The notes beneath the pieces are model-generated. The model was not told the DNA's origin, made no database searches, and worked only from the letters and a program-made list of their open reading frames with translations. A stretch of 64,000 nucleotides of DNA from an uncultured Desulfatibacillum sp. (lineage in GTDB: Bacteria > Desulfobacterota > Desulfobacteria > Desulfobacterales > SpSt-501), in contig CAZNAX010000001.1 of NCBI GenBank assembly GCA_964570965.1, positions 105,469 to 169,468 on the forward strand, read 5' to 3'. The position numbers were made by a program, and so were the translations under genes. Shown here piece after piece: positions 486 to 50,400 of the stretch (positions are counted from its first letter, which is position 1; each line of letters starts with the position of its first letter).

Positions 486-550
486 TCTAATAAATCCCCC
501 ATACAAAAGAAAAGGGGACATCCAGCCATCTGCTGAATGTTCTCTTAGCT

Positions 551-559: not shown

Positions 560-595
560 GAGGATGGACCGAAAGGATCTTAGGAGGTAAGTGAG

Positions 596-907: not shown

Positions 908-908
908 G

Positions 909-1443: not shown

Positions 1444-1446
1444 ATC

Positions 1447-3877: not shown

Positions 3878-3900
3878 GATCGAGAGACGAGGGAGTGAGA

Positions 3901-6189: not shown

Positions 6190-6770
6190 ACCTAGTGATC
6201 GGGATTGATGGGGTCGGTTTGGGCGCCCTTGCCGGCCCCATCACTATAGCTGCAGTTGTCATGGAGAGGGATCAGACCATCAAAGGAGTCCGTGACTCCA
6301 AGAAGGTCTCCAAGAATAGAAGAATTGATCTAGTCCATGACATAGACCGACAGAGTCTTTTCTGGATCATGGCTCAGTCGAGCTCGAAGGCAATCGACAA
6401 GTACGGTATACGTACGTGCAACCTGACGTGCATGAAGTGGTGCGCCAAGATCGCTATGAAGTTGTATCCGGACGCGCTAGTGATTGTAGATGGTACTGAT
6501 CCAGTACCCGACATCGCAGCGTCAAAGCAAAGAGTAGTGATCAAAGCGGACGACAAGTTCATGTCGGTAGGTGCAGCTTCGATAATAGCCAAGGTCCAGA
6601 GGGACAAGTATATGGTCTCTCTGAGCACAGAGTGGCCCGCCTATTTGTTCCATGATCACAAAGGATACGGAACCAGAGATCATATTCATGCCCTCAACAA
6701 GTACGGTCCGTGTCCTGAGCATAGAGTGAGCTATGGTCCAGTAAAGCGGGCGAGCAGAAGGAATAGCTAG
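6186..6770 (+). CDS. rnhB: RNase HII-like protein with an atypical first catalytic motif
   Basis: DSKK, VDG, ADDK..AASIIAKVQRD and HKGYGT...HRVSYGPVKRA align by eye to E. coli RNase HII. The first motif is GIDGVGLG instead of GVDEVGRG. Confidence 0.75.
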   Translation: MNLVIGIDGVGLGALAGPITIAAVVMERDQTIKGVRDSKKVSKNRRIDLVHDIDRQSLFWIMAQSSSKAIDKYGIRTCNLTCMKWCAKIAMKLYPDALVIVDGTDPVPDIAASKQRVVIKADDKFMSVGAASIIAKVQRDKYMVSLSTEWPAYLFHDHKGYGTRDHIHALNKYGPCPEHRVSYGPVKRASRRNS

Positions 6771-12226: not shown

Positions 12227-12535
12227 ATGATCAGGCCAATGGGTGACTGGATATTGGTGAAGCCAAATCCAGATGAGTCGAGTACTGAGGAAGGGATCAT
12301 CATTCCAGGAGAGGCACGACGGACGGCTGTGAAGACCGGTGTGGTCAAAGCAGTTGGACCTGGGAGGATCAACGAGAAAGGGAACAGGGTGCCCCCAGAT
12401 GTGAATGTTGGTGACACTGTTTCCTACATCTTTGCCTTGGAGAAGAGTAGGACTGGGGAATGTATGAAGATGTCGCTTGGAACCGACGAGTTCATGCTTA
12501 GGGAAGCCGATGTCCTCACAGTCACCAGTGAGTAA
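12227..12535 (+). CDS. groES: GroES-like co-chaperonin (Cpn10)
   Basis: MIRPMGDWILVK ... EEGIIIPGEA ... GVVKAVGPGR ... VNVGDTV follows the Cpn10 consensus along its whole length. GGAGGA SD. Confidence 0.8.
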   Translation: MIRPMGDWILVKPNPDESSTEEGIIIPGEARRTAVKTGVVKAVGPGRINEKGNRVPPDVNVGDTVSYIFALEKSRTGECMKMSLGTDEFMLREADVLTVTSE

Positions 12536-15571: not shown

Positions 15572-15695
15572 GGACACGTCGAAGATCGTATGTCCTCACT
15601 GCAAGAGCGAGATGGCCACCAAGAAAGTGGTGAACGGTGTTTCCGTTCTCTTCTGCATGAAGTGCAGGACGCAGTTCAAGACAACTCCGATCTAG
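15546..15695 (+). CDS. small zinc-ribbon protein (49 aa, TTG start); only partly represented in the ORF track
   Basis: AAGGAGG (15533-15539) 6 nt before TTG 15546. Contains CPHC ... CMKC. Its stop overlaps the convergent ligase stop by 4 nt. Confidence 0.45.
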   Translation: MGKLYKENRDTSKIVCPHCKSEMATKKVVNGVSVLFCMKCRTQFKTTPI

Positions 15696-17032
15696 GAAAG
15701 TCTCGCATCGAATGCCTCGTTAGAGGACTTGTCAGGATGCCACTCAAGAAAGATCGGATGCTGGAGGGCGTTGGTATCATCTCCTTCGGCTATGAAGGTG
15801 CGAGACTCGTACTTGATCCTAGCAACTCCAGCAATGCCACGATTGTTGGCCGCTCTACGAAGGACGTACCTACGTTGATCTTCGGTGAACCCGGATCCAC
15901 AATTGCAGATGTAGTGCATTGCTCCTTCGGGTCCGAATTGGTAGAGAGCCACAACACCCGGAAGATCCTTCAACCTACCTTTTCCGTAGCGACCACCGGG
16001 CTTGCCGCCGCTCCAGGTCATATCGGGATCAAACACTACGATGAAGTCTCCTTCCAGGATTGGTTTCCATTTCCAAGCTTCAGGTCGATCTTCACGTCCT
16101 CGAAAGTTGACGACAGCATCCCCGAAGATGGCCTCAGCGTCGTAGATCACCAGACCCTCGAGGCTCTCATCGCGAACAGTGATCATCAGTTCATCGAGAG
16201 GATTGTCGGAGGATACTGTAGTGAGTGTTTCCATGACCTGAAGGTATTGGAACTTCCTGCTACCGATCTTCCTGTACATGAAGTCGATCCATTCTCCTAC
16301 TGGAAGCTCTGCCATGATCTGCTTTCCAGCCCAGTAAGGAATTCCAAGAACGATAGCTGTTGGTCTGCGGAATGGGTCGTCTTGGAGAAGAACAGCTCTC
16401 TCTGGAAGACTCCTATCGAGAGTCTGCATCAGTCTCCTGTTGTCCATTCCGTTCTCCACGACGACAAGCTCTGTGAGAAGAATGGTCTTGGGCGGAAACT
16501 TGGCATTCGCGATCTCACGAGCGAGGTATGGATAGTTTGCCGTGCAAAGATCCATTCTCCTCGTGAAGATATGAACGTGATCGTCGTCGATGAAGATGGG
16601 ATGCATCATCCCGTCTCTTTTGATCGTGAAGATAGCCCTATCAGAATCGATAACCTCTTGCAGGCGGGCCATCTCCTTGCTTCCTTCTTCCGGCTGGTGA
16701 CGACACTTCATGAATCGAAGATTCTTGGCGGGGTTGGAGAAGTTGATCTCGTCATCCCTAGTGGATCTCAGAACCTCTCCAGTATTGGGGTCGACTTCTT
16801 GGTAGCCGAGTCGTTCGATCTTGTCCCTGATGTGACGATCGGCAACGAGTATAGCCTGCGTCTTGGCGTCCTTGTACCCCTTCGTTCCAAACTTGCCGAC
16901 AGGTCCGGGTCGATCATGAGTCTGCTTCATCTTCCCTCCGGCGATGCCGGATTCCATGAAAACTACCTCACCGTCGACACCGATCCTCCATTCGAGCGGG
17001 TTGATCTTACCACTTTGCCTGAACACTCTCAC
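15692..17032 (-). CDS. lig: ATP-dependent DNA ligase with an N-terminal WGR-like domain
   Basis: Motif I KRDG (16609-16620), III LLTELVV, IV EGLVIYD, V WKWKP, OB CGSGFT, VI HPIFLEWHPDK. The N-terminus EWRIGVDGEVV ... KGYKD ... LGYQEV resembles WGR. AGGAGG lies 8 nt before GTG 17032; the track start at 17041 overlaps the SD. Confidence 0.85.
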   Translation of the reverse strand: MRVFRQSGKINPLEWRIGVDGEVVFMESGIAGGKMKQTHDRPGPVGKFGTKGYKDAKTQAILVADRHIRDKIERLGYQEVDPNTGEVLRSTRDDEINFSNPAKNLRFMKCRHQPEEGSKEMARLQEVIDSDRAIFTIKRDGMMHPIFIDDDHVHIFTRRMDLCTANYPYLAREIANAKFPPKTILLTELVVVENGMDNRRLMQTLDRSLPERAVLLQDDPFRRPTAIVLGIPYWAGKQIMAELPVGEWIDFMYRKIGSRKFQYLQVMETLTTVSSDNPLDELMITVRDESLEGLVIYDAEAIFGDAVVNFRGREDRPEAWKWKPILEGDFIVVFDPDMTWSGGKPGGRYGKGRLKDLPGVVALYQFGPEGAMHYICNCGSGFTEDQRRYVLRRAANNRGIAGVARIKYESRTFIAEGDDTNALQHPIFLEWHPDKSSNEAFDARLS

Positions 17033-17067
17033 TTCAATCACCTCCTAACATCCGCTAGACCGATGCT

Positions 17068-17076
17068 CTTATAACA
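17068..17076 (-). promoter_or_regulatory. extended -10-like TGtTATAAG (minus strand) upstream of the ligase gene; the palindromic TTATAA core also gives plus-strand TATAAC upstream of gene 17096
   Basis: Plus-strand cttataaca at 17068-17076. It lies 35 nt from GTG 17032 and 20 nt from ATG 17096. Confidence 0.35.
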
Positions 17077-17893: not shown

Positions 17894-20800
17894 ATGATGA
17901 GTTCGCAGCAGATCGCAGCGATGGCATCGCAGCAACAAGCGATGTTTGGAAACTTCCAATCGTATGCAGCGCAGATCACTCCTGCTTATGGAGCTGGTCC
18001 TGGAATGGGGGCTTTGAGACCTCCTGTCATGGGCGGCTATCACACTGGATCCCCACCAATGATGCCCCCACCCCCACCTCCAATGCCCGGTCTCAACATG
18101 GGTTACGGGGGCGGAATGATGCAGATGGCCACAATGATGCCGTATGCGTCTCCGCAGATGGGAATGCAGCAGGTGATGGGGGAGCAACTTGCCGGATCTT
18201 TTACGGGCGGATTATCCACTGTGGGGTCGGGTCTCGCTCGTATTGGCGGATACGGTGCTCTCGGAGCTGCTGGCCTGAGCATGCTCGGTATGGGCGGAAT
18301 GGGTATGGCAGCTCTTGGCGGCCTACCTGGAATGGCAGTTGTGGGCGGCCTAGAAGCAGGGGCCTACGGCCTCAGTCAGATGCATGCCGGCTTCCAAGAA
18401 CGACAGAATGTGAACAGAGTTCTTCGCCAACGCTTTGGCGGAATGATGGGGATCGGCGGTGGTCGTGGTGGGATGGGGTTCAATACCCAGGAGATGGGTC
18501 AAGTTTCTTCGATGGTTCGTGGCATGGCAGATCAAGACATGTACACGAGCTTTGATGAGCTGACGCGGTTGATGGATCGTACAGCGCAGATGGGGTTGTA
18601 CAGAGGAGTACAAGGAGCGCGGCAGTTCCAGACCAGGTTCAAGGAGACAGTTGCTTCGCTGACAGAGATCGCGAAGACAATGCATACCTCCCTCGAAGGC
18701 GCCACTCAGTTCTTCGAGCAGGCCAGAGGACAGGGCTTCTTCTCTGGAAGAGACATCACAGCGACGTTGACGCAGACCAGGATGGCTGCAGGAGCCTCTG
18801 GTATGTCCATGGATCAGATGATGTCTATCAGAAACCAGGGTACCCAGATGGGACGCATGATGGGTATGCGTGGCCGAACTGGAGCTGGAGCCATGATGCA
18901 GATGGCTACCAACATCGGGGTTGGTATGCAGACCGGTGCCATCAGCGATGAATTGATCTCAGAGGCTACTGGCGGATTGATGGGTGCCGAAGGCGCGCAA
19001 GCTGCTGCCGGTATGATGATGCAGTCAAACGCTAGATGGCTACGAAGAGGTGCCGGCCGTGTGATGTTGGCAGGACTTTGGGATCCAGCAACGGGTGGAA
19101 TCAACAGAGAACGTCTAGCTCAGGTAATGTCCGGGGGAATGAGCTTCCAGGACGTTCGAGCTATGGGTCGTGCGAACATATCCGGAACTGGTGGTAGGAG
19201 ATCAGAGTTCTTTGCTAACGAAGAGCGACTTGGAGGTATGCTTCAGGAAGCGGGAGGTGGGGCGATTCAATTTGGAATGCTAGAGGAGCATATCAGAGCT
19301 CGTCGTGGAGTTACCTCAGACGATCCTATCGGTGAGCGATTCATTCGTAGACAGACTGGCTGGTCTCAAGCCGAGTTCGAGCTTCAGCGTGCAGCGTACA
19401 GAAACCTTCCCAGGATCCTCGAAGATAGATCTATGAGAGAGGCGCAGCAGAATGAAACAGCTATGCGTACTCGATCCATGGAGGGGAGGGGTGTTGCTGG
19501 AGCGCAGAGGCGTATACAGCATTGGTGGCAGACAGAGGTTACAAGTCCGATCAGGCAGATGGGTGATGACCTTGTAACTTCGTTCACAACGAAGGTTGAT
19601 GAGATCTTCAATCAGATGGAAGGAAACGTGAAGCTCACTATTTCTGAGCGTACTCAGGGTCTATTGACTGAGTATGCTAGAACAGGTGAACTCGGCAAAG
19701 ATCTTATGTCCTTCAAGCGCTATCAGGAACTTAGTCGGAAGCTAAGAACTACTAGTGATGAGGGTGGGTTTTGGGGAGGTGTTGGTCGGTCATTGGGTAT
19801 GCGTCCTGGAACAATTGATGAGAGATTCAACGACATTGGAGGGTATCTATATAGTCGAGCCGGTAAGGGTCTAGACATTGGCGCCAAACTAACACAGAAA
19901 CAGAAGGAAGATTTCATCAATAAGTATTACGAAGAATCGAACATGAGCGCATCTGAACTTGGATTTACTAGCGATCAAATACAGAAGCTTAGTGGGCGTG
20001 CAAGTCAGATACTGACGTCTAAGATCGGAACAGGAGCCAGACTTCAGGAGTTCCGAGAACAACTTAGTAGATTTCCTCTTATGTCAGGTGAGGAGAAAGA
20101 TCTTTTCTTCCAGACCAGACTTGATATGTACCAAAGCGGCGACCAAGATATCAAAAAGTTCTTCGCTAAGTTGAGTGGTAGTAGGGCGAAACAGTATGCT
20201 GGACTAGCTCAACTAGAACGTGGATTTGGTAAGGGCATTGAGATGCCCGTTGATGCGATGGGGGGTGTCAAATCCTATGAGACACTACGAACACAACTAA
20301 AGAGCGCAGCTGATAACGAAAAGTCTGTAATGAATCGACTAGCTGCTAAGCTTTTGGGTGGTGGATACGGTACTGAGTGGGCTTATCAAACTACAACTGA
20401 AAGGAAAGAGGGTACTGGGTGGTGGGGTACTAGTTTCATGGGAGAGTCTAAAGAGATAACGAAAAAGATTGCAGGAAAAAAGCTACTCGATGAAATAAGA
20501 ATGCGAGAAAATACGGGATTTATGGACCAGGATTCTAGCCTCGAAAGTAAAAGTAGCGCCCTAAGAAGATATGCCGTATCAATTACAGGTTTGATGTCCG
20601 ATGAGGGTACAAGAGATCTACTTATAAGAGCATCGAGGCCTGGCGGTGATCCTGCGGCACTAAAAAGGCTGCAGGAACTATCGAGGATGGACGAAAAACA
20701 GGCAAAAGATTTTGGTGTCAGCGATGTCGAGGCACTAGGCAAGCTCACTCAGAGAATCGCCAATGACGATACAAAGGTCAAGAACGATATATCAAGTCTA

Positions 20801-21709
20801 GCCGAGTCCTCAAATCTACGAGATATGATAGCCGTATCTCAGCGAGTAAAAGAATCAGGTGCGGCTCTGGATAAGTCGCTGCGGAACAACAGAGCTATTG
20901 TAGAGGCTGCGGACAAAGTATCACCAGAGACAATGAAATCGCTACAAGCTATCGCGGCTGCTGAATCTTCTGGTAACTGGGAAGCTGCTAATGAGCTTCG
21001 TAGTAAGTTCTATTCTGACTACATTGGAAAGCCTGGATCCGAATACCTAGCTGCAGCTCTACGGGCAGATCCTACTGGTGGATCTGTCAATTTGGGTGTT
21101 GGTATGCAGCGAGCTCTTCGTATACAAGGTGAGCTTACCGGGAAAAGGGGTACTGAGCTGGGTATTAGGGAGATGCTTAGCTCTGTTGGTCTAGACGAGA
21201 AGGCGTTTGGTGGTAAGGAGTTTGAGGCACTAGGTCGTAATCAGAAGCAGCGTATGAAAAAGCTGACTGGTATGATCACCAGTAAAGAGGGGATAACATC
21301 AGAACAGTTGACGACCTATCTTGGTGGAACAGCGGGAGACAAAAGTGCGATTGATGCGATTGCCGGTATGGGTGCTGGTACATTCAAAGATAGAACATCA
21401 TCCTGGCTAGAAAGCGGAAAAGACGGCTGGGATGCTAAAGAAGCCGCAGCATTGGCAGTAAGCTCAGGTGCAGAGGAGGCCCAACAGGGATCAATGGGGG
21501 GTACGCAAACTAGAAGTAGCCTTGCTGAAAAGCAATACGATATTCTCAAGAAGATGTTCGACTTTCAAGTAGTTCAATCGACGAAGGACGCTGGACTGAT
21601 CAAGGAACAGACTGATAATCTCATAGCTGCCATGGGATTGCAGTCGAAGACTACGGCCCCTGCTGGTGAGGGAACCTCTGAACAAATTCCAGGAGATTAT
21701 GCGGGGTAG
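17894..21709 (+). CDS. giant virion-module protein (1271 aa) with a Gly/Met/Pro-rich N-terminus; tape-measure-like or internal/ejected protein
   Basis: First gene of the long plus-strand operon. About 190 aa of low complexity (PPMMPPPPPPMPG, GGMGMAALGG), then a long helical-looking region. No enzyme motif accepted. Confidence 0.75.
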   Translation: MMSSQQIAAMASQQQAMFGNFQSYAAQITPAYGAGPGMGALRPPVMGGYHTGSPPMMPPPPPPMPGLNMGYGGGMMQMATMMPYASPQMGMQQVMGEQLAGSFTGGLSTVGSGLARIGGYGALGAAGLSMLGMGGMGMAALGGLPGMAVVGGLEAGAYGLSQMHAGFQERQNVNRVLRQRFGGMMGIGGGRGGMGFNTQEMGQVSSMVRGMADQDMYTSFDELTRLMDRTAQMGLYRGVQGARQFQTRFKETVASLTEIAKTMHTSLEGATQFFEQARGQGFFSGRDITATLTQTRMAAGASGMSMDQMMSIRNQGTQMGRMMGMRGRTGAGAMMQMATNIGVGMQTGAISDELISEATGGLMGAEGAQAAAGMMMQSNARWLRRGAGRVMLAGLWDPATGGINRERLAQVMSGGMSFQDVRAMGRANISGTGGRRSEFFANEERLGGMLQEAGGGAIQFGMLEEHIRARRGVTSDDPIGERFIRRQTGWSQAEFELQRAAYRNLPRILEDRSMREAQQNETAMRTRSMEGRGVAGAQRRIQHWWQTEVTSPIRQMGDDLVTSFTTKVDEIFNQMEGNVKLTISERTQGLLTEYARTGELGKDLMSFKRYQELSRKLRTTSDEGGFWGGVGRSLGMRPGTIDERFNDIGGYLYSRAGKGLDIGAKLTQKQKEDFINKYYEESNMSASELGFTSDQIQKLSGRASQILTSKIGTGARLQEFREQLSRFPLMSGEEKDLFFQTRLDMYQSGDQDIKKFFAKLSGSRAKQYAGLAQLERGFGKGIEMPVDAMGGVKSYETLRTQLKSAADNEKSVMNRLAAKLLGGGYGTEWAYQTTTERKEGTGWWGTSFMGESKEITKKIAGKKLLDEIRMRENTGFMDQDSSLESKSSALRRYAVSITGLMSDEGTRDLLIRASRPGGDPAALKRLQELSRMDEKQAKDFGVSDVEALGKLTQRIANDDTKVKNDISSLAESSNLRDMIAVSQRVKESGAALDKSLRNNRAIVEAADKVSPETMKSLQAIAAAESSGNWEAANELRSKFYSDYIGKPGSEYLAAALRADPTGGSVNLGVGMQRALRIQGELTGKRGTELGIREMLSSVGLDEKAFGGKEFEALGRNQKQRMKKLTGMITSKEGITSEQLTTYLGGTAGDKSAIDAIAGMGAGTFKDRTSSWLESGKDGWDAKEAAALAVSSGAEEAQQGSMGGTQTRSSLAEKQYDILKKMFDFQVVQSTKDAGLIKEQTDNLIAAMGLQSKTTAPAGEGTSEQIPGDYAG

Positions 21710-22010: not shown

Positions 22011-23339
22011 ATGGCTGTGTTTATCGAGGCTAGGACCGAACCATTCGCTGCAAGGCGCGAAGAGATGGCTAGTGGTATCCGTGATCACGGAAGATCACAT
22101 CCATACGTGCGTAGACCAACGCGAGGGTATCAGCTCAAGGAAGATGTCTTTGCGGTGATCAGGATCATGGGACCGGATGGTCGGTTCATGCCAGTGATAG
22201 ACGCTGCTGGTGAGGAGTATTCTGTCGAGACCAATAGTGGCATGACAACGTCCTACTCGAACTTCTTCATTCAGTCTGTCTCTGAGCAGCGACAGGAGAA
22301 GCAGCAGATCGTAGAGACGTTTGGTGATTCCTGGATCTTCTTCTTTGGTGAGGCGCCACGTCTTCTCCAAGTAGGCGGTTACCTTCTGAACACGGCCGAC
22401 TTCAACTGGAGAGCAGAGTTCTGGGAGAACTATGAGCGGTACTTCAGAGGGACCAGACTTGTCGAGCTAGGGGCGCGTCTATACTTGATGTACGACGATA
22501 TCATAGTTGAGGGGTACTTGATCAATGCCGCTGCACAGGAGTCCGCAGCACCAGCACCGGCAGTGCTCCAGTTCAACTTTCAGATGTTTGTCACTGGTTA
22601 CACTAACGTTTCTAGGATAGGTGATCCTAACTTTCCTGCTCCAACAAACTTGGACTACGCGCAGCTTTCTAGTTACGATCAGGCTATTCAGAGTTGGCAG
22701 AGGAATAGGAACCTACAACGCAATATCGCCGGTGAGACCATCAACGCAGCTAACAGAAGAGCGTACCAGCTAGGAGTTGGCGCACTGCTGGCGGACTCCC
22801 TTCGTGCGAACATGGTTGATGCCGGTGATCCATCCATCTCAGCGTTTGTTGCCAGAGCTTACATGGCGACCAGAGCCGTGGCCACACTGGCTCAGCTAGC
22901 TAGCAGTCCAGATTCAGTGACCAATGCATCTGTAAATCCTTACGAGGGAGTGAGCATGCAGGGGCCGATGCGTCAGCAGTTCACGCACAACATTGATGAG
23001 TACGTCAGCTCAGGAGAGGAGTCACGCTACGCCAATAGGCATTTTGCATATGAGCTGTCTATGGCTGAACGTTGGCAAGAGATGGATAGTCAGATGGATG
23101 CCGGTCTAGATGGGATGACATCAGGCGGATCGGACGCCGGAGGATCAGAGTTCTGGGATGTGATGGGGCGTGCAGGTAGAACACAGCAGCAGATCATTGA
23201 GAGTGGTGGAGATAGACTCGTATCCCAGAACATCAACCGTGGTATGTTTATCGGCGCCGCTAGTCGCAGTGGTAACCAAGCGGCTCTAGCCAGATCAATA
23301 CCGTTCGGGATGATGGTCATGCCAGGGGAGATGCTGTAG
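22011..23339 (+). CDS. hypothetical virion-module protein
   Basis: 442 aa; abuts the next gene (TAGATG). Confidence 0.7.
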   Translation: MAVFIEARTEPFAARREEMASGIRDHGRSHPYVRRPTRGYQLKEDVFAVIRIMGPDGRFMPVIDAAGEEYSVETNSGMTTSYSNFFIQSVSEQRQEKQQIVETFGDSWIFFFGEAPRLLQVGGYLLNTADFNWRAEFWENYERYFRGTRLVELGARLYLMYDDIIVEGYLINAAAQESAAPAPAVLQFNFQMFVTGYTNVSRIGDPNFPAPTNLDYAQLSSYDQAIQSWQRNRNLQRNIAGETINAANRRAYQLGVGALLADSLRANMVDAGDPSISAFVARAYMATRAVATLAQLASSPDSVTNASVNPYEGVSMQGPMRQQFTHNIDEYVSSGEESRYANRHFAYELSMAERWQEMDSQMDAGLDGMTSGGSDAGGSEFWDVMGRAGRTQQQIIESGGDRLVSQNINRGMFIGAASRSGNQAALARSIPFGMMVMPGEML

Positions 23340-26796: not shown

Positions 26797-29700
26797 ATGG
26801 ACGACTTGAAGAAACAGGCGGTTGGCTACAGAAGTGGCGGTTTCATGCAGGTGCGAAGAGGAACCAGACCACTTCACGTCGAAACCCTCCTACGTCGTAA
26901 GACTCCAGAGTCAGCGGCCAACATCTTCGAGCCGGCCAGGCCAACGACAACAGACAAGACCTTCGAGCAGTCTCTTGCGGCCACAGCTGGTGAGGAGTTC
27001 CAGCCAGCAGAGGCTGAAGAGAAGGTAGCTTCGATCAGTGAGCGTGAGTTCCTTGCGAAGGTCAAGAACGAGGCAGCCAAAGAAGGATTCGACATCTTTG
27101 CGGTAGCCGGTCGACCCGATCAGAATACAGGTGCATCCATATACAGTCGTAAGGGGCCAAAGGACACTTCTGCTGCGTGGAATGCGCGAAAGGCGCACAT
27201 GGAGTGGGAGAAGTCACAGGGAATGGATCCAGCACACGACTGGTCGAAAACTGCGGAGCTGCGCAGAGACAAGACCACAGAGAAGCCTACTCAAGTTGAT
27301 CCGAAGGTTGTCGAGTCGGTAAAGATCAAGCAACTCGGTACCGAGAATGGAAAGAAGGTCTTTCTGGTAAATGGTGCCGATATACGAAACAAGATCGATA
27401 CAGACTTCGCTCTTGGTGGTAACTCTGCGAGGTATAGCTACGTCCCAGAAGGTGAGCTGTGGGTAGAGCAGACAGGTTCAACAGTAGATAGTGACGAGAA
27501 GCATACGATCAAGCATGAGGATCGTGAAGAGAATCTCATGCGTAGAGGTATGAACTACAACCAGGCCCATGGAGAGGCTACAAAGGTTGAGACTGTTGAA
27601 CGCAGAAAGCAGGCTTCCGCAGGAGAGTTCGTAGGAAGACTGGCGCCGCTAGTAGATGATGCGGCGATCCTGGCATGGAGAGCCTATCAGAATAAGCAGG
27701 GAAAGAAGCAGGAGATCCAGGAACCAAAAGTCGGTGAGGTGAAGAAGTCTTCTCTGATCACTGATCTAGAGAAGGAAGCAGCTAAGGAAACAAAGCTGAA
27801 GACAGAGCTTCAACCTTATCAGCAACGGGTAATAGATCGACTAAGGAACCAATCTGGTCTAGTAGTGGCCCATGGACTTGGATCTGGAAAGACTCTCTCC
27901 TCCATCGCTGCTGCTACAGAGCTAGCTCCTGGAGAAGCTGCTGCACTAGTACCAGCAGCTCTGCAGGAAAACTATCTCAAGGAGATCGCAAAGCATACAG
28001 AAGGCGCTTCTCCGGTCAGTGTTGGCAGTCTTCAAAATGCGGTAGTGAAGAAGAACATACCGTCAGCCCCATTGCTGATCGTAGACGAAGCGCATAGGCT
28101 CAGGAATCCGGCAGCAGAAGGCTACCAGTTGATCAGAGACGCTAAGACTGGTAAGCGGATGCTTCTTACTGGATCGCCGGTGTACAACAAGCCAGAGGAT
28201 ATTGCTCCTCTCGTCAACCTAGCCGCCGGCGGTCGTGTTCTTCCTGTTGGATCAGATTTCAACCGTCGTTACGTTCGACAGCCGGGTAGGGGTCTTCTTA
28301 CTCTGATCAATCCTTTTGCGAGTGTTGATCCGAAGATAGTCAACAAGGGAGAGCTAGGTGGGGCACTTCACAAATGGGTTGACTACTACAATCCTGAGGG
28401 TGAAAGATCAGCGGACTATCCAAGCCTCAAAGAGGTAAGGATAGACGTTCCCATGTCAGAGTACCAGACGACGGTACATGATGCTGCTTGGGGTCAAGTT
28501 CCTCTGCTAACTCAATGGCGACTACGAAAGTCGCTTCCACCCAACAAGCAGGAGCTATCAGAGCTCAATAGATTCCAATCGCAGGCTCGGCAGATTGCAA
28601 GCTCTGAGAAGAAGTTTCGCACTGGAGATGATCCAGTTGCCATAGCCCCAAAGATCCAGGAAGCAGCAAGACGACTATCGGATCAGATTGAGACCAATCC
28701 AAGACATCGTGGTCTGGTTTATGCCAACTACCTCGAGACGCTCAATGACTACGCGAAAACGCTGGACGAGAAGGGAATTCCGTACGCGCAATTCCGTGGT
28801 GATATGTCCGCTAAGGTTAGAAACCAGGCAGTAAAGGATTACAACGAGGGTAAGATCAAGGCGCTACTTGTATCCGGTGCTGGTGGTGAGGGGCTTGATC
28901 TGAAAGGGACCAGACAAGTACAGGTACTAGAGCCGCATTGGAACGAAGAAAAGCTGAAGCAGGTAATCGGGAGAGCTAGGCGTCTTGGATCGCATGCACA
29001 TCTTCCACAAGAGGAGAGAAATGTTCTCGTAGAGAACTATTCGTCTTATCCTCAGAGATCATTTCTTGGGGCGATGTTCAAGGGGCGAAAAGGCGTAGAG
29101 GGGATGCTCTACGATATGTCAGCCCAGAAACAGCGATTGAATGATCAAGTAATAGACTTGATGAAGAGTGGACAGCATCGTGAGCGCATAGAAGTCTACG
29201 GCCTTCATAATGGAAAGCTTCTAGCCGGTAGGTTTCCAGATAGATCAGTTGGTGTATACGGAGGCGGTGTAGATCCTGGAGAGACTCACGAACAGGCAGC
29301 CCATCGAGAGTTCTTGGAGGAGTCGGGTTACAACATAGGTAACCTTCGCAGAGTAGATGTTCCCCCATTTGAGTCTCCGTGGGTGGAGGATCATGGTCCT
29401 ATCGAGCTTATGGCGCCCAAACGCCGAGAAGAATACGAATCTAGGCGCAAAAAGTTTCCTTCAGGTCACAAGACGACCTACTTCGCTGGTGAGGTGTCTG
29501 GAGAGCCATCGAAACCAGCAGATGATACGGGGTCACTCGGAAGAGTGAGGCCAATTGATCTGAATAGAGCTATCAAGATACAGCAAGCCGTCCTCTCAGG
29601 GATGACGAACCCTTACGACATTCGTCGTCTGGAAAGTAGGATCGCTGTTCTTGAGTCTCTAAAGGACCCACAGAAAACCGCAGCACGTCGTCCCGAATTC

Positions 29701-31392
29701 CCGAACGGGACAGTTCGGGAAAACGGGATGGCTAAAATTGCTGCTGAAGCAACCACCGGACGTAGAGAGTTCGCTCCCGGAATCCCGACCGGTAGAGTCG
29801 TGCAGAGGATACCTTCTGTGAAGGAGAGTGGTCCAAACGCGGAGTGGACTGCAAGTCTTGCCCTTCACCCAGCTGCAAAGCGTGGCGATCACTACGATCT
29901 ACGTCTAGTGGACTCCAAGGGCAAAGCGCATTCTTGGGCTATCAACAACATCCCTGAGCCGGGTAAGAGCACCTATGCTGCCCAAATGCCAACTCATTCT
30001 GGATCCTACGCCAAGCGTACAGAGCCGTTCACCATTCCGATCAATGTCTATGGTGGTACTAGACCTGGTGCACAGGTAGAGCCGAAGTACGTTCAGCCGG
30101 TGGAGGTGATCTCGGCTAACGACAATCGAGTCCATCTGCTTCGTCATGAAGGACAGAAGACGGAAGAGCTGGTACTTCGTAGAGTCGCAATGGCTGGTGA
30201 TCAAACACCGATCTGGGCACTCCACAACGCCACCAGAACTCGATCGACTCAAGAGGGGCAGCGACTTCCGGATATGAAGCCCAGGTATCAGGAGATCCCA
30301 ATCGGGTCAGTGGATTTCAACAACGACCAGCAGCTCATGACAGCGAAGATCGATGGAGCGCATACCATCGTAGATTTCTACAAGCCTGATCGAATGGCGA
30401 GAACATACTCGTATCGGCCTACTCAACGAGAGAGTGGTGTGATCGAGCATACCTTCAAGTTTCCCAACTTCCAGAACCTGAAGACGCCACCATCGTTGAA
30501 AGGTACTATGATCAGAGCTGAGACGTGGGCCTCCGACTCCGCTGGCAGAGCGATACCAGCGTCTGAGATTGGTGGTCTCCTCAACTCGAACGTGATCAAA
30601 TCAAGACAGGCTCAACAGGAAGGCAATATCACTCTCCGCAGAACTGGCATCGATGTGATCCGCTACAACGGCAAAGACATGTCCACCGCTCCATACGAGA
30701 GAAAGCTTGAGATCTTGAGAGAGGTCAACAAGGCTACCAAGGGCGCTATCGAGCTCCCAATCTCCGCTAGGACTCCGGAAGAGAAGGCCGAGCTGTTGAA
30801 TGCGGTGAAGGCTGGAAGGCTGCCAGAGACCAAGGAGGGGGTAGTCCTCCACGATCTTAGTAGCAGCACGATGATGAAGGCGAAGGTTAGGCCAGATACA
30901 GATGTCTACGTGCGAGAGATCGTCACGAAACCACTGACTGAGGCAAAGGGTCAGGCCGCTGGGTTCAAGTACTCTCTCGAACCAACTGGTCCTATCATCG
31001 GTCATGTCGGTACAGGGTTTTCCACACAGCTACGAAAAGAGATGTTGGAGAGCCCAGATCGTTTCGTTGGTCGAGTAGCCAAGGTCCAATCAGGAGGACA
31101 ACACGTAAGTCGTAGTGGACGGATAGGTGCTCTAGTCGGTTCTCCTGCGTTCAAAGAGTGGCACATCGACAAGACGCCGCCTGAGCTAATGAAGGAGGCA
31201 ACTTCCATTGGGGAGGTAATTAGTAGAGCGGAAAAGGAAGTTGATCCAGAAGCACTAGCTGAACGGTTGATGGAGACTAGTAGAACAGTCAAAGCACTCA
31301 AGCCGATTGTAGAGAGCAGTGTTGTACGTCCTTCACTGTTGAAGCTCAGAAATGAGTATCGAAACATCATAGGGGAAAAACCCGGTGATTGA
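26797..31392 (+). CDS. polyvalent multi-enzyme protein: unknown N-terminal region + SNF2-family helicase + Nudix hydrolase + LigD-type 3'-phosphoesterase-like domain + ATP-dependent ligase
   Basis: Single ORF (track 26710..31392). ATG 26797 is the first ATG after the upstream stop; TTG 26761 is an alternative. See the domain features below for motifs. Confidence 0.85.
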   Translation: MDDLKKQAVGYRSGGFMQVRRGTRPLHVETLLRRKTPESAANIFEPARPTTTDKTFEQSLAATAGEEFQPAEAEEKVASISEREFLAKVKNEAAKEGFDIFAVAGRPDQNTGASIYSRKGPKDTSAAWNARKAHMEWEKSQGMDPAHDWSKTAELRRDKTTEKPTQVDPKVVESVKIKQLGTENGKKVFLVNGADIRNKIDTDFALGGNSARYSYVPEGELWVEQTGSTVDSDEKHTIKHEDREENLMRRGMNYNQAHGEATKVETVERRKQASAGEFVGRLAPLVDDAAILAWRAYQNKQGKKQEIQEPKVGEVKKSSLITDLEKEAAKETKLKTELQPYQQRVIDRLRNQSGLVVAHGLGSGKTLSSIAAATELAPGEAAALVPAALQENYLKEIAKHTEGASPVSVGSLQNAVVKKNIPSAPLLIVDEAHRLRNPAAEGYQLIRDAKTGKRMLLTGSPVYNKPEDIAPLVNLAAGGRVLPVGSDFNRRYVRQPGRGLLTLINPFASVDPKIVNKGELGGALHKWVDYYNPEGERSADYPSLKEVRIDVPMSEYQTTVHDAAWGQVPLLTQWRLRKSLPPNKQELSELNRFQSQARQIASSEKKFRTGDDPVAIAPKIQEAARRLSDQIETNPRHRGLVYANYLETLNDYAKTLDEKGIPYAQFRGDMSAKVRNQAVKDYNEGKIKALLVSGAGGEGLDLKGTRQVQVLEPHWNEEKLKQVIGRARRLGSHAHLPQEERNVLVENYSSYPQRSFLGAMFKGRKGVEGMLYDMSAQKQRLNDQVIDLMKSGQHRERIEVYGLHNGKLLAGRFPDRSVGVYGGGVDPGETHEQAAHREFLEESGYNIGNLRRVDVPPFESPWVEDHGPIELMAPKRREEYESRRKKFPSGHKTTYFAGEVSGEPSKPADDTGSLGRVRPIDLNRAIKIQQAVLSGMTNPYDIRRLESRIAVLESLKDPQKTAARRPEFPNGTVRENGMAKIAAEATTGRREFAPGIPTGRVVQRIPSVKESGPNAEWTASLALHPAAKRGDHYDLRLVDSKGKAHSWAINNIPEPGKSTYAAQMPTHSGSYAKRTEPFTIPINVYGGTRPGAQVEPKYVQPVEVISANDNRVHLLRHEGQKTEELVLRRVAMAGDQTPIWALHNATRTRSTQEGQRLPDMKPRYQEIPIGSVDFNNDQQLMTAKIDGAHTIVDFYKPDRMARTYSYRPTQRESGVIEHTFKFPNFQNLKTPPSLKGTMIRAETWASDSAGRAIPASEIGGLLNSNVIKSRQAQQEGNITLRRTGIDVIRYNGKDMSTAPYERKLEILREVNKATKGAIELPISARTPEEKAELLNAVKAGRLPETKEGVVLHDLSSSTMMKAKVRPDTDVYVREIVTKPLTEAKGQAAGFKYSLEPTGPIIGHVGTGFSTQLRKEMLESPDRFVGRVAKVQSGGQHVSRSGRIGALVGSPAFKEWHIDKTPPELMKEATSIGEVISRAEKEVDPEALAERLMETSRTVKALKPIVESSVVRPSLLKLRNEYRNIIGEKPGD
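27808..29000 (+). other. SNF2/DEAD-like helicase domain of the polyvalent protein
   Basis: LQPYQQ, GLGSGKT (27874-27894), DEAH (28084-28095), LLTGSP, GGEGLDL and QVIGRARRLGS. Confidence 0.85.
29185..29560 (+). other. Nudix hydrolase domain of the polyvalent protein
   Basis: Exact Nudix box G-x5-E-x7-R-E-U-x-E-E-x-G-U, read as GGVDPGETHEQAAHREFLEESGY (29263-29331). Confidence 0.85.
29851..30225 (+). other. LigD 3'-phosphoesterase (PE)-like domain of the polyvalent protein
   Basis: LHPAAKRGDHYDLRLVDSKGKAHSWAI ... THSGSY ... YGGT ... VHLLRHEGQKTEELVLRRV parallels KHAA.RLHYDFRLE..G.LKSWAV ... DHP.DY ... YGAG ... G.KL.G.W.LVR of bacterial LigD PE domains. Confidence 0.65.
30285..31172 (+). other. 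ATP-dependent ligase (nucleotidyltransferase + OB) domain of the polyvalent protein
   Basis: Motif I KIDG (30346-30357), III MIRAETW, IIIa IDVIRYNG, IV EGVVLHD, V MKAKV, OB VGTGFS, VI FKEWHIDK. Confidence 0.85.
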
Positions 31393-32155
31393 TCAACAGA
31401 TAGATCCCGTTCTCGACTTCCTCGAGTTTGCAACCGAGCTGGACAAGGAAGCTGCTGAGGACAGAGCCGAGAAGGACTTTCAGCTCTGGCAGACGTGGAA
31501 GCAGAATGGTAAACAGGCTGATCATCTTGAGCCGCTCATGAAGCAGATCGATCCCCTGATCAGAAGAGCTTCCAACATTTACGCAGGGAAGGTCAACATA
31601 CCAAGATCAGCAGTACATGCAGAGTTTCAGATTCAGGCTATCAATGCGTTAGACAGCTTCAATCCGAATCGTGGAGCTTCTCTTGGTACGCATGTTACCT
31701 GGCATCTCAAGAAGGGCAGGCGATTCATAACCACGTATCAGAATATCGGCAGGATACCTGAGACAAGGATCTACAACATCACCACCTTCCAGAATGCTAG
31801 GGACGAGCTGAAAGATCAACTTGGAAGAGATCCCGCTGCTCATGAACTTTCTGATAAGCTGAAGTGGCCGGTGAACCAGGTATCTGCCATGGAGCTCGAG
31901 CTGCGTAAAGAAGTGCCAACCTCGACTCTTCAGTCAGATATGAGCTCTCTCAAGCCGTCGAAGGAGACTGAAATCATTCGATTGATCCAGTACGAGCTAA
32001 CTCCAGAAGAGAAGATCGTATACGAGCATCTACTTGGGGTGAACGGAAAGCCTCAGCTCAAGCCCGGTGAGATAGCTACAAGGCTCAACATGTCTCCGTC
32101 TAAAGTATCTAGGATCAAAGATAGTATTGGCGCCAAGGTAAAGAAGTACTACTGA
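31385..32155 (+). CDS. sigma-70-family RNA polymerase sigma factor (group 3/4-like)
   Basis: Region 2 (FQIQAINALDSFNPNRGASLGTHVTWHLKKGRRFI..IGRIPE), region 3 and a region 4 HTH (LKPGEIATRLNMSPSKVSRIKDSIGAKVKK). GTG 31385 overlaps the polyvalent gene stop by 8 nt. Confidence 0.8.
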   Translation: MIDQQIDPVLDFLEFATELDKEAAEDRAEKDFQLWQTWKQNGKQADHLEPLMKQIDPLIRRASNIYAGKVNIPRSAVHAEFQIQAINALDSFNPNRGASLGTHVTWHLKKGRRFITTYQNIGRIPETRIYNITTFQNARDELKDQLGRDPAAHELSDKLKWPVNQVSAMELELRKEVPTSTLQSDMSSLKPSKETEIIRLIQYELTPEEKIVYEHLLGVNGKPQLKPGEIATRLNMSPSKVSRIKDSIGAKVKKYY

Positions 32156-39231: not shown

Positions 39232-39915
39232 ATGGCGAGCACAAAGGTCCCGGACAAAGATTCATCTGATGAGATCACTCAGGTAACTGATCAACGTAGC
39301 ATGTACAAGAAGCTGGAGAAGCTTGATGGCTTGCTGCAGCGAACTATTCGACATGTTGGAATCATACCGGAGATCAAGACTAAGGTATACGCATCCAGCG
39401 AGAAGCTGATCGAGCTGAATACCATTGTCGTCGCTATGGATGAGCGTGTCGACAGGGTTGAACAGCGAATAGATCATGGCCATGACTGCTACCAGGTAGA
39501 TACCATCTCCAATGTCTCCGAGAGTAGCAAGCAGATAGCTGCTACTATCCACGACTATCTGGAGTCATCGATCAAAGCATCCGAGAAGGTCAAACGTATC
39601 GAGGATGATGTACGGGAGATCAAGGGTAATCGCAAGTGGCTGATCGGAGTCATAATCGGTTTACTCGTTCCTATGCTTGGATCAATCGGTAGTGCTATCT
39701 GGTTGGCAGCCACTTTGAATGAAAGAGTCGAGACTCAAGAGGCTGTACGTAGACAGCAGATCGAGCGAGTGGAGAGCGTTGTTCGAGCATCGGATAGACG
39801 CCAGACTGAGGCATTGAAAGGCATCGATCTGCAATTGGAAAAGACGCTCACCGTTGTTCCTGATGGTAAGAGTGCTGGTATTATCTCTCGGAAGGCGGGT
39901 AAGCGTGTTCCATGA
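39232..39915 (+). CDS. membrane-anchored coiled-coil protein
   Basis: 227 aa; hydrophobic span WLIGVIIGLLVPMLGSIGSAIWLAA flanked by charged helices. Confidence 0.65.
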   Translation: MASTKVPDKDSSDEITQVTDQRSMYKKLEKLDGLLQRTIRHVGIIPEIKTKVYASSEKLIELNTIVVAMDERVDRVEQRIDHGHDCYQVDTISNVSESSKQIAATIHDYLESSIKASEKVKRIEDDVREIKGNRKWLIGVIIGLLVPMLGSIGSAIWLAATLNERVETQEAVRRQQIERVESVVRASDRRQTEALKGIDLQLEKTLTVVPDGKSAGIISRKAGKRVP

Positions 39916-47438: not shown

Positions 47439-50400
47439 ATGGCGATCACTGATTGGAGACTGTTCATCCAGGAGCGACTGCGGGCTTATCAGTCGGATAT
47501 CAACCTCAACACAGGATCACCAGCGACCGTTCAAGTTGTCGATCCCATAGTCAATAGGTTGTCTCCTGATCCTATAGAAACCAAGCTGCTTACTTTCATC
47601 ATGACTAGGTTGCAGCAAGAGCATCCGATGCTCTATGCCAGAGAAGGATCCACGATTATGGATCTTCTCGTGAAGCCCAATCTAGTTCTGATCGAGCCTG
47701 TGCGCCGTGAGATAAACAGCGTAAAAAGTCAGCTAACGCTGCTGTACCCAGAGCTTCTTAGTGCTGATGAGGCGGATGCTCTGATAGCTAACTTCTTCAT
47801 CACGAGGAAGCTGGGAGACTACGCAAGGGTAAAGGTGCGTCTGTACTTCCAGAACCCGGTGTCGGTGAACATCGGAACGGCAAACGTAGCATTCACAGCT
47901 CGAGGATTGCGATTTCTACCAACGAGAGCGCAAAGCATTACAGCTGAGGGAATGCTGACCAACTGGGATGGCAACCTCTACTACTTTGACGTGAACTACG
48001 TTGCTGAACGAGCAGGCACCTCATACAACATCGCTGCCAGTGAGGTCATAGGTGTTACTGGAATATCAGCAGCAACGAGGGCTACCAATCTTGCCAAAGC
48101 GAATCCGGGAAGTGACGAAGAGACCACGAACCAATTTGTTTCTCGTGCAGAGAGATCACTTGGAGAGAGGTCGCTCACTACAGTTCCAGGAATAGTTTAT
48201 CAGCTATTTGATCAATTCCCGGCCTTGACCATTCTTCAGATCATAGGCTTCAACGATCCGGAGATGCAGCGTGATGTGATCACTGGAGGAAATCTCGGCT
48301 CAGTAGTCGTGTTTGGGAATACGGGTGTCACAGTAAATGATGGAGATGCCGACGGCTACACGTGGATTTTCTCCGATCCGGCAGCCAGCTTCACCACTCA
48401 GTTTGGTCCTGTAGGCACAGATATCTCTGGATATACACTGACTGCCTGGTACATCGATGGTGCGTTGTTGACTCCACATGATATCAAGTTGAGTCAAGTG
48501 CTGGGCGCCAGTCAAGTAAGCATTGATCCAGATCTGAGTGGAACAAGTAGACTTCCAGATGCACTGACTAATGTGATCTGGACCATTAGGGAAAGAGCGA
48601 CGCTGACACTTTCTGGAATACCAGGTGGAATACTGTTCACATCATCTACTGGCGGGGAGGTCAGTGTTCCGGACGGAGTTGTCCACGTTGGCGGTTGCAC
48701 TGATTTCTACGTTCGTGGTGGTGACATTGTAGACGGCTCTCTGTCCGTAGAACTTGTGTCCGATCAGGATGTGCTAGCTAGAAGGGAAGACGCACATACT
48801 ACCAACGGATCATCTACTGTGGTACTAAACGATCTAACTGCGGCAGAATTTGCTTCAGTAATTGAGGGGGACTCTTCGCTCTACCTAGAGGAAGGATCTG
48901 ATCAGGGATCGTACAGGATCATAGAGAAGGTATCCGGCGGTCCTCCCTACTCAGTACGTCTACGCGATGAGATGACAGCCAACGCTACTAATGTTTCCTA
49001 CACGATAGTAGACGACATCGACATTGATCTACTTGATCCGAAAGACACTAGGTATGAAGGATCTGATCTGAGAACTATCGCTGGCTCTCCAATCATCGAT
49101 ACGGTCAGTGGTACTCCGGACTTTGTAGATGTTGGCGTCACTGATGAGGACATCGTAGAGATCCTCAATGGGTCTGACGTCGGTGAGCATACCATCGCTT
49201 CTGGTGGCGTAGCAGCTGGCCAGATAACTCTCAGTTCGGATATGACTGTCACTGAATCGCCACTTCAGTACAGGATCTTTCATCGTAAGAGCGGTATCTC
49301 TTTGCCACTGCTGCGTGTCAAATCCGTTGAAAGATTGGATAGTGGTCTAGAACCTACTGGGGAGATGATCCCATTCCGACATCCTGTGGACATCCAATCG
49401 CGGAGCTTCCAGAACCCAGGGCGTGAGGCCACAGTAGGAACCTATATCGATGTAACTGAAGGATCATACTTCAGGGCGTCTTCTGGATCAAAGATTTTGA
49501 CTGCTATTGATCTAGCTGGAGGCGCTACTGGTTTCGACTTCTGGACACTTGGTGTTCGTCCTGGTGATCTAGTGAACATAAACAGCACGGACAATCAGGG
49601 TTACTACACCGTAGAGCTAGTTGGCGTACCTGGAGGACTAAGTGCCGATCAGATTCAGGTTACCACTGCTATGCGATGGAGTACCGTTGCCGGACAGGAT
49701 ATGATCTATGAGATTGGTGGGCCATCTTACGGCTCTTTCCGTCTCTACTTCCTTGATCCAGTAACATTCGAGGTAAGCTACTCCAATACCATATTCTCTG
49801 TTACGGTTGATGGCGTATCTAGAAGGTTCAGACCTGATCCAGAAATTCACGCACAGTACCTTCCCACAGACGTTACGATACCAACAGTCTTGATGACGGC
49901 GACATCGGATGATGTGAGTCCATATACGGTGGGTGGAGCGGATACAATTGATCTACGAATACACCAGATCGATGTCGGAGATCTAGCTGAAATCTCGTAC
50001 GCTCCGATCATTGGCTCTGCTGATCTATCAGCTGGTGCCATAAATCTAGACGGCAAGCGTATCAAAATAGATGTCGGTTACGGAACTGAAACGATCTACT
50101 TCTCTGGAACCTCTTTGGGAGCTGACGAGATCGTTGCTCAGATGAATGCGCAGCTGTCGCGTGAGGTAGCAGCCAAGTACAATGCTCCAGCTCCAGCAAC
50201 GACAATTCATGCGATGCTGAGAGCGGACATTCCGATCTCGCTCATTTCAGATGGAGCTCTAGCTGATGCTACACAGCTCGTGTTCGGTGTCTCACGAGCT
50301 ACGTGGCATCCGTGGCTGGCTGGATCCTTTGTGAGTAACACTACGCAGAATGATGCTCCCGACAAGGGTCTCTATCTCGTTCAGTCGATCGGGTCGTATC

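Follow-up and report, generated by a model that had tools for sequence, protein, structure and literature searches.

The locus considered here lies within a window of 64,000 nucleotides (nt) from an uncultured Desulfatibacillum sp. assembly (GCA_964570965.1, contig CAZNAX010000001.1, positions 105,469 to 169,468 of the forward strand), and centres on one gene for a giant protein in which a SNF2-family motor, a Nudix hydrolase, a LigD-type 3'-phosphoesterase (PE) and an ATP-dependent polynucleotide ligase (LIG) are joined in a single chain. Such multi-enzyme products are termed polyvalent proteins. The host of the gene is an uncultured myovirus of ~174 kb, a distant relative of Salmonella phage Arash. 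The reading frame has been open since 26710 and contains no internal stop between the ATG at 26797 and the TGA at 31390-31392, which bears out the single unbroken frame described in a first-pass annotation of this DNA. The ATG at 26797 is the preferred start because the resulting N-terminus, MDDLKKQAVG, lines up with those of homologues (M..KKQAVG). The gene-called version, P0001, begins 15 codons further 5' to give 1546 amino acids (aa), and the identical product is present on three contigs. The preceding frame stops at 26768, 5' of the chosen ATG, and at the other end the stop overlaps the GTG start (31385) of a sigma-factor gene by 8 nt, an overlap that had been noticed earlier and is real. 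The features are collected in the table.

Table. Features of the window referred to in the text, in order of position (nt).
Feature	Position	Residues (aa)	Strand	Basis or remark
Conventional ATP-dependent DNA ligase, 449 aa	15692..17041		-	PF01068, 34.4 bits
Upstream block, proteins of 1271, 95, 442 and 1142 aa	17894..26768		+	Same position as Arash gp4-gp8
Whole polyvalent gene	26797..31392		+	Codes for 1531 aa, then stop; modules in order are leader, N-terminal domain (NTD), SNF2, Nudix, PE, LIG and C-terminal tail
N-terminal leader, ~70 aa (GGFMQVRRGTRPLHVETLL ... FEQSLAATAGEEF)	26836..27042	14-82	+	On at least 22 clusters
Uncharacterised alpha/beta domain (NTD), about 100-110 aa	27301..27630	169-278	+	Library search, AlphaFold
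SNF2-family ATPase/translocase	27802..29181	336-795	+	Pfam, motifs, Arash gp217 similarity
Nudix hydrolase domain	29182..29757	796-987	+	Pfam PF00293 and Nudix box
LigD-type 3'-phosphoesterase (PE)	29758..30231	988-1145	+	Family profile against 3P4H/3P43, residues
ATP-dependent polynucleotide ligase (LIG)	30232..31185	1146-1463	+	Profile, Pfam on homologues, AlphaFold/Foldseek
C-terminal tail, 66 aa	31192..31389		+	Kept at the extreme C-terminus of P0003, P0004 and P0005 despite different cargo
Sigma-70-family gene	31385..32155		+	Arash gp10 homologue (29% identity, E=2e-24)

The four enzyme domains named in the first-pass annotation are genuine, and each motif that it quoted was recovered in its place in the translated frame. 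Two of them are recognised from the single sequence. The SNF2 domain displays motifs I (GLGSGKT, 27874-27894), II (DEAH, 28084-28095), III (TGSP), V (GGEGLDL) and VI (QVIGRARRLGS), and scores above the Pfam cut-offs for SNF2-rel_dom (47.2 bits), Helicase_C (64.8) and ResIII (26.6). Judged by its two RecA-like lobes, this motif set and the SNF2 profile matches, the protein is a member of the SNF2/SWI2 family of ATPases, for which 115 homologues were found. The Nudix domain likewise exceeds its Pfam threshold (PF00293, 33.8 bits against a cut-off of 21.1), and its Nudix box, GGVDPGETHEQAAHREFLEESGY at 29263-29331, satisfies each position of the consensus GX5EX7REUXEEXGU, features by which it belongs to the Nudix hydrolases. 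As no model came close to its cut-off when the polyvalent protein was scanned against NCBIfam, the domain falls in no named subfamily; the best Nudix matches in that collection, all of them sub-threshold, were YtkD, NudC and RppH.

The PE and LIG domains emerge only through a family profile. With the single sequence the Pfam scores fall below threshold (LigD_N 17.9 against 31.1 bits, DNA_ligase_A_M 12.9 against 26.2 bits), and a plain PDB sequence search with the C-terminal 570 aa gave nothing meaningful, so that a profile was required. This profile, A1, was constructed from 11 homologous PE-LIG cassettes, which share a recurring unit of ~470 aa with the pattern EFAPGIP...H.A..G.H.DLRL...SWA...TH..Y...K.DGA...EGVV...K.K...GTGF...WH.DK. 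Against the archaeal LigD-PE structures 3P4H and 3P43 it gave E-values of 1.7e-15 and 5.5e-14, respectively. Each member of the catalytic set, comprising the metal ligands His, His and Asp together with Arg, His and Tyr, aligns to both structures and is invariant across A1; the window protein keeps the full set as H1024, H1032, D1034, R1036, H1067 and Y1071, the signature segment being LHPAAKRGDHYDLRLVD at 29863-29913. One relative, P0184, scores 63.7 bits with the LigD-PE family (PF13298), and on this profile and residue evidence the PE domain is placed in the LigD 3'-phosphoesterase superfamily defined by that family.

The adjoining LIG domain contains a nucleotidyltransferase (NTase) core followed by an OB domain. 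The NTase motifs are I (KIDGAH with K1184, the KIDG at 30346-30357), III (RAE, within MIRAE), IV (EGVVLH, within EGVVLHD) and V (MKAKV); GTGFS is also present and the OB domain ends in a motif VI-like PAFKEWHIDK that includes EWHIDK. Profile A1 matches the Pyrococcus furiosus DNA ligase 2CFM with E=4.4e-8 across both NTase and OB domains, and A1 shows no variation at the ligase residues K, D, G, E, EG and K. When the cassette members were scanned singly with Pfam, DNA_ligase_A_M (PF01068) was matched by nine of the 11, LigD_N by seven and RNA_ligase (PF09414) by two. An AlphaFold2 model of the window cassette has a predicted local distance difference test (pLDDT) score of 86.8. All 50 of its listed Foldseek matches in the PDB are ATP-dependent DNA ligases, including those of Archaeoglobus, T4, human Lig1 and Mycobacterium tuberculosis LigD, and no capping enzyme is found among these 50. 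The exception to this regularity is motif I, where KIDGAH aligns to KYDGAR of 2CFM and the canonical Arg of KxDGxR is missing family-wide, KxDGA being followed by H, S, L or A. LIG is thus a member of the ATP-dependent DNA ligase clade (NTase plus OB), apart from its non-canonical motif I. The missing Arg, together with the few RNA_ligase matches, means that an RNA or mixed RNA/DNA substrate is possible.

The enzymes are framed by modules of a different kind. The leader, with the pattern R.G.RP..V.TLL...S..F...FE..LA...G.EF, heads at least 22 protein clusters (among them P0002-P0006, P0012, P0120 and P0128-P0151) whose cargo differs, in that PE-LIG or SNF2 occurs by itself, the two occur together, or PE-LIG is accompanied by other modules, and it occurs on no other open reading frame in the window. 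It may be a capsid-targeting or processing signal. An exhaustive search of a library of 1.84 billion proteins found the NTD in 1604 cluster representatives, frequently repeated in tandem and frequently as part of a small protein, with the invariant residues H-E-x-x-E ... A-H ... E. Its AlphaFold model is confident (pLDDT 93.6) and has no fold match in the PDB; the domain corresponds to no Pfam family, and a PDB sequence search with the N-terminal 338 aa gave nothing meaningful. A fold search of BFVD returned a resemblance to the IrrE, SprT and PolyVal zincins that is non-significant (E >= 0.087), and there is no Pfam MPTase match in the polyvalent protein. The NTD is also present inside Rctr197k_173 of virus Rctr197k, a textbook polyvalent protein of 2039 aa with two InPase stretches, DUF7178, DUF5661 and a 2H phosphoesterase. 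The library search also returned P0336, a protein of 1737 aa that combines a SET domain, the NTD and a eukaryotic-type topoisomerase IB catalytic core; here, too, an enzyme that breaks and rejoins DNA is carried by this set of modules. A G-x-E-F motif is observed at module borders here (aa 67, 277 and 991; ~nt 26995, 27625 and 29767) and in relatives, and P0004 and P0005 have two EF dipeptides each, all at module borders. The motif could be a maturation-protease site, yet the copy at aa 991 doubles as the first PE strand.

How widely is this combination of enzymes distributed? SNF2 and PE-LIG are joined in 11 clusters among the 115 SNF2 relatives, with the cassette C-terminal to the helicase in P0001, P0002, P0006-P0009, P0011 and P0063 and N-terminal to it in P0010, P0020 and P0021. 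The full set of four is confined to the window protein (P0001) and, in permuted order, to P0007, where the Nudix domain is N-terminal. The four-enzyme combination, which the first-pass annotation did not recognise, is rare and unannotated. Other relatives represent partial or altered versions. For instance, P0003, P0004 and P0005 have no helicase and keep the leader, NTD, PE-LIG and tail, with a Nudix domain as well in P0003 and P0004, while P0164 is a Nudix-PE-LIG protein without helicase. P0017 joins SNF2 to a LigD PrimPol domain (PF21686, 48 bits) and PE, P0063 joins SNF2 to a P-loop kinase (AAA_33), a HAD-like domain, PE and LIG, and P0138 and P0200 are kinase-cassette fusions. Around the SNF2 core, relatives exchange InPase, GNAT, C39 peptidase, kinase, PrimPol and intein modules.

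A search with the profile of the cassette itself returned at least 236 metagenomic protein clusters with PE-LIG, unannotated ('hypothetical') and on contigs of up to ~200 kb. Most are stand-alone proteins of ~460-500 aa and others are fused to GNAT, InPase, kinases, SET, DUF192 or DUF5662. PE-LIG is nearly absent from bacterial genomes, with four loci in 185,579 species-representative genomes, all of them on contigs of metagenome-assembled genomes. DNA and protein searches of 50,697 phage records gave helicase-level matches and no close relative, and no paper that describes the phage PE-LIG family was found in the literature. PE-LIG is a mobile two-domain cassette, widespread in phages and not unique to the window protein. 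End-processing or pyrophosphate-removing partners (kinase, HAD, PrimPol, InPase, Nudix) are repeatedly fused to the cassette or to the SNF2 carrier; an InPase in such a fusion would clear the pyrophosphate made by ligase adenylylation.

The genomic setting of the gene is best appreciated by comparison with Arash. Between 17894 and 32155 the genes follow one another closely on a single strand, with the polyvalent gene and then the sigma-70-family gene at the 3' end; baseplate J and tail-fibre genes lie downstream of the polyvalent gene, and a promoter/terminator scan gave no signal above chance. The order of genes matches that of Arash, where gp4 (1097 aa), gp5, gp6, gp7, gp8 (1165 aa) and gp9 are followed by the sigma gene gp10. 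Searches of the window with Arash proteins by tblastn placed gp6 at 22227-22469, the gp10 sigma factor at 31457-32143, gp13 at 47556-48281 and the helicase gp217 at 27805-29163, the window SNF2 core being 35% identical to gp217 over 470 aa. Within the upstream block, sequence similarity to Arash is confined to the 442-aa protein, which resembles gp6; its giant neighbours have no Pfam or PHROG matches, and the 1142-aa protein has no match in the phage records. The earlier description of three giant virion-module proteins upstream therefore stands in part, in that the 442-aa protein matches an Arash structural protein while the giants have no family matches. The 1271-aa protein (17894-21709), which has a Met/Gly/Pro-rich, low-complexity N-terminus, occupies the same position as Arash gp4, which ranks among the most abundant proteins of Arash virions. 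The giants were also considered as split RNA polymerase (RNAP) subunits, an idea that was rejected as they lack Pfam and PHROG matches as well as any DxDGD-type motif, and nothing in the window was hit when Arash gp206 and gp216 served as tblastn queries.

The placement in a virion-type operon suggested by the first-pass annotation is thereby backed indirectly, through synteny and through the Arash virion proteome. Mass spectrometry coupled to liquid chromatography (LC-MS) of purified Arash particles identified Gp4, Gp6, Gp8, the Gp10 sigma factor, RNAP beta and beta' and the helicase Gp217, the last of these with 38 unique peptides and 1148 spectra (PMC10585845). With homologues of Arash gp6, gp10 and gp13 in the same block, the polyvalent gene can be said, from gene order and similarity, to sit in a virion-type neighbourhood. 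The slot between the ~1140-aa protein and the sigma gene is kept in the related contigs L002, L003 and L006, and its cargo varies: it can be a protein of 1461 aa, one of 1476 aa, or a PE-LIG protein of 684 aa with a 383-aa protein behind it. The 684-aa slot protein (P0147, L006 10001-12055) retains the first ~20 residues of the SNF2 domain (LKTELLPHQKRVVERLREQPGLV), which suggests an origin by deletion from a SNF2-PE-LIG ancestor.

The concept of polyvalent proteins, with SNF2 as a hub domain and delivery together with the DNA, was set out by Iyer, Burroughs, Anand, de Souza and Aravind in 2017 (PMC5512222). By architecture and neighbourhood the window protein fits this class, in being very large, in joining unrelated enzymes around a SNF2 hub within a virion-type gene block, and in having relatives with shuffled InPase, GNAT, peptidase and kinase modules. 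The swapping of modules round the SNF2 core and the recurrence of the NTD in the Rctr197k giant protein uphold the class membership proposed in the first-pass annotation. Its suggestion of an undescribed system has to be replaced, in that what is found is a new combination inside a described class (PMC5512222). What is new is the rare four-enzyme combination, the undescribed cassette family, the leader and the NTD. The window protein differs from the described examples in having no Pfam match to a zincin MPTase and no MuF, DNA methylase or ART domain, in carrying a LigD-like PE and an ATP-dependent ligase as cargo, and in its own leader, tail and undescribed NTD. The zincin-like MPTase is the most connected hub of the 2017 survey and is not universal; in the text of that survey 'LigD' appears 0 times and 'ligase' only in the context of RNA ligases (PMC5512222). 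Two broad surveys by the group that defined the class leave LigD-type modules in such proteins unmentioned.

What, then, might such a protein do? We infer, and would give the idea an even chance of being right, that it is a polyvalent protein, packaged or acting early, by which broken nucleic-acid ends on incoming phage DNA are healed and sealed. The starting points for this proposal are the intact gene, four folds that keep the residues needed for catalysis, a mobile cassette, a gene order shared with Arash and the detection of the homologous Arash helicase in virions. From there, a conserved leader and a conserved tail would flank variable enzyme cargo, which here would consist of the Nudix domain and the phage LigD-like cassette, and the protein would be packaged or produced very early, with the incoming phage chromosome as its target. 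The SNF2 double-stranded DNA translocase would serve as the carrier, holding the repair enzymes on DNA, and may additionally serve packaged transcription machinery. In the cooperation envisaged between the domains, the Mn-type PE would strip 3'-phosphate or 3'-ribonucleotide blocks and the ligase, as a member of the DNA-ligase clade, would seal the break after this cleaning, so that the pair could mend nicks and breaks made by host nucleases or join the genome ends independently of the host NAD-dependent ligase. The task of the Nudix domain would be to clear a nucleotide that is inhibitory or acts as a signal, or else to trim a 5' end. A counter-defence role of this sort has a functional precedent in the PhiKMV DNA ligase, which mends breaks made by Cas12a and EcoRI and acts as a counter-defence (bioRxiv 10.64898/2026.09.21.753257).

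Several observations weigh against this proposal. The giant upstream proteins belong to no recognisable family, and Arash gp217 has no leader; hidden Markov models of the leader and cassette found no match in ~98 kb of Arash, and that of the NTD found none likewise. In all, 116 proteins were detected in the Arash preparation, primase and ribonucleotide reductases among them (PMC10585845), so that some of the detections may be carry-over. Motif I is KxDGAH and lacks the Arg of KxDGxR, and a few cassette members also match the Pfam RNA_ligase family. Distant SNF2-PE-LIG genes (P0009, P0020) are found among non-structural genes, near Ro60/vWA, deaminase and PNKP-like HAD genes. Finally, no Ku family was present among the Pfam matches of called genes in the window, its ~10 kb flank and related loci.

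The same enzymes could be turned towards RNA. In such a process, tied to phage transcription, SNF2 would act with co-packaged RNAP and sigma factor in a RapA- or NPH-I-like manner, the Nudix domain would trim 5'-triphosphates or NAD caps, PE would remove 2',3'-cyclic or 3'-phosphates, and the ligase would rejoin RNA, for instance where anticodon nucleases or HEPN RNases have cut a tRNA or mRNA. Several links to transcription favour this possibility, including the stand-alone PE-LIG gene between the RNAP beta and beta' genes in L007, the position of Arash gp217 next to RNAP beta' with similar virion abundance, the translational coupling of the window gene to a sigma factor, and the remark of Iyer et al. 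2021 that a SNF2 helicase tracks the distribution of phage RNAP, for which they suggest a RapA-like role. To these may be added the identity of the top sub-threshold Nudix matches, the Pnkp-like kinase and HAD fusions, the nearby Ro60 genes, the absence of the DNA-ligase Arg in motif I and the members that match PF09414. Against RNA as substrate are the DNA-ligase-like fold, OB domain and motif VI, with DNA ligases as all 50 listed structural matches and DNA_ligase_A_M outnumbering RNA_ligase by nine cassette members to two. The SNF2 clade moves on double-stranded DNA, no RNAP gene is present in the 64-kb window or its ~10 kb flank, and PE is not known outside the LigD proteins of DNA repair and the archaeal homologues of these. 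An RNA-end repair function, the leading alternative, is regarded as unlikely. It is more doubtful that the protein belongs to a virion-borne, poxvirus-like factory for transcription and RNA processing, where SNF2 would work with co-packaged RNAP and sigma factor and the Nudix, PE and NTase domains would remodel RNA ends and not DNA; equally doubtful is the RNA-end work assigned to it there, comprising de-triphosphorylation or decapping, 3' trimming and RNA-RNA or RNA-DNA joining of nascent or host RNAs. Capping enzymes and ligases share the NTase plus OB fold and the KxDG motif, and RNAP and sigma genes are found linked to the cassette in genomes, which leaves room for the 'ligase' to be a capping-type nucleotidyltransferase, with PE as an RNA 5'-triphosphatase and the Nudix domain as a decapping activity in a unit that handles phage mRNA caps. 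This is very improbable, given that no capping enzyme is among the 50 listed structural matches, that the Pfam scan of cassette members gave ligase and LigD families only, that motifs IV (EGVV) and V (K-x-K then D-V-Y-V) are ligase-like in what is generally known of these motifs, and that the PE catalytic set is that of 3'-phosphoesterases.

Another possibility concerns not the substrate but the time and place of action. The protein could be an ordinary, unpackaged intracellular enzyme of replication, recombination or repair, produced in the course of infection, that deals with RNA-primed or ribonucleotide-containing ends and seals DNA, its position near structural genes being incidental. The PE domain of LigD resects 3' ribonucleotides and its LIG domain prefers 3'-ribo nicks, RNase HII, PolA, RusA and a RecA-like protein are among the products of the phage, and the distant homologues lie in non-structural neighbourhoods. 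Replication enzymes are also present in the Arash particle proteome, and the mass-spectrometric evidence is in consequence not specific. Yet the phage already possesses a separate conventional ligase, presumably the replicative enzyme, which makes the fused ligase an extra copy and not the replicative one; the two are distant paralogues, and the OB end of the separate enzyme, PIFLEWHPDK, resembles that of the fused ligase (26% identity). The polyvalent gene is packed on the same strand as homologues of virion proteins with no promoter or terminator above chance, the cargo of the slot varies while leader and tail are conserved, and partners such as InPase, GNAT, C39 peptidase and the NTD are typical of delivered polyvalent proteins. 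An unpackaged housekeeping role is for these reasons considered unlikely, and the delivery of a DNA-mending protein continues to be the favoured reading.

The proposed DNA-mending protein can be compared with a number of better-known systems. It resembles bacterial LigD (POL, PE, LIG) and the archaeal PE proteins 3P4H and 3P43 in the six PE catalytic residues and in a PE that abuts an ATP-dependent NTase-OB ligase, and the relative P0017 even has the LigD PrimPol domain. The window protein differs in having no POL (no PrimPol match), no Ku that could be seen in the regions scanned, a KxDGAH motif I, PE His ligands that are two residues further apart, and a cassette fused to SNF2 and Nudix; the PE-LIG family is, moreover, phage-borne and nearly absent from bacterial genomes. 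With POL absent and Ku not found, the protein is not a LigD in the sense of non-homologous end joining (NHEJ). By analogy it might work like a DarB-style polyvalent SNF2 carrier fused to a Ku-less, POL-less LigD. The closest parallel for the motor is given by Arash gp217 and by the SNF2 helicases that are linked to RNAP in jumbo phages (PMC10585845; PMC7824862). The SNF2 core of gp217 is related, and the genes around the window motor, sigma factor included, are syntenic with virion genes; gp217 itself, unlike the window protein, stands alone, with 472 aa and RNAP beta' as its neighbour, and has no leader, Nudix, PE or LIG.

Cleaning ends and then ligating them, and so undoing nuclease-based immunity, is a strategy with precedents. 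T4 Pnkp and Rnl1 counter PrrC in this way, and the comparison extends to the PhiKMV ligase and to those relatives of the window protein that add a Pnkp-like kinase and HAD domain. The T4 and PhiKMV enzymes are separate soluble proteins expressed after entry, whereas the window enzymes are fused to a motor in one polypeptide. Mycobacteriophages Corndog and Omega are reported (Pitcher et al. 2006) to use a phage Ku and the host LigD to circularise their genomes, which is NHEJ-type end joining by a phage on its own incoming genome; here the phage would supply PE and LIG itself, and no Ku was seen. A cellular counterpart is the bacterial cluster of Lhr-Core helicase, MPE nuclease, ATP-dependent ligase and phosphoesterase (Ejaz & Shuman 2018, as cited in PMC10140301), in which a helicase, a phosphoesterase and an ATP-dependent ligase form one repair unit. 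The cluster is an operon of separate proteins with an Lhr (superfamily 2, Ski2-like) helicase in place of SNF2 and another phosphoesterase family, and it is not viral.

If the protein is delivered with the genome, phages would bring their own break-repair kit, composed of a motor, an end-cleaning enzyme and an ATP-dependent ligase. Such a kit would be independent of the host NAD-dependent ligase and would give phages a broadly applicable means of weakening restriction enzymes, CRISPR nucleases and defences that nick DNA, complementing the recent report of the PhiKMV ligase doing so after expression. The analysis also exposes three unstudied families, namely the phage LigD-like PE-ligase (at least 236 clusters), the leader that marks cargo and the ~100-aa NTD (at least 1600 cluster representatives). 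Proteins consisting of PE-LIG and little else may, in addition, be of use as reagents.

Some further observations concern the relatives and the rest of the phage. In the Arash-like contig L007 (3486-16113), the stand-alone PE-LIG gene lies just after the portal gene, between an RNAP gene and a gp216-like (RNAP beta') gene. The first of these encodes 1987 aa with Rpb2-type and Rpb1-type Pfam domains and matches Arash gp206; a 475-aa gene after RNAP beta' was examined as a helicase and is not one. On the plus strand of the window, the frame at 15590-17074 is merely a shadow of the minus-strand ligase gene. A tRNA scan of the window found no tRNA genes. Other phage genes in the window encode RNase HII (6186-6770), a Cpn10/GroES-like protein (12227-12535) and an Amidase_2 lysin (3895-5013), and an SSB-like protein is also encoded in the window or its flanks. 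Past the right edge of the window (L016) are RusA, at the edge itself, a RecA-like protein, an HU-like protein and a split PolA. Just before the block of tail genes, at 39232-39915, lies an XhlA-like protein (31.4 bits, below the Pfam cut-off), which may be a lysis or membrane protein.

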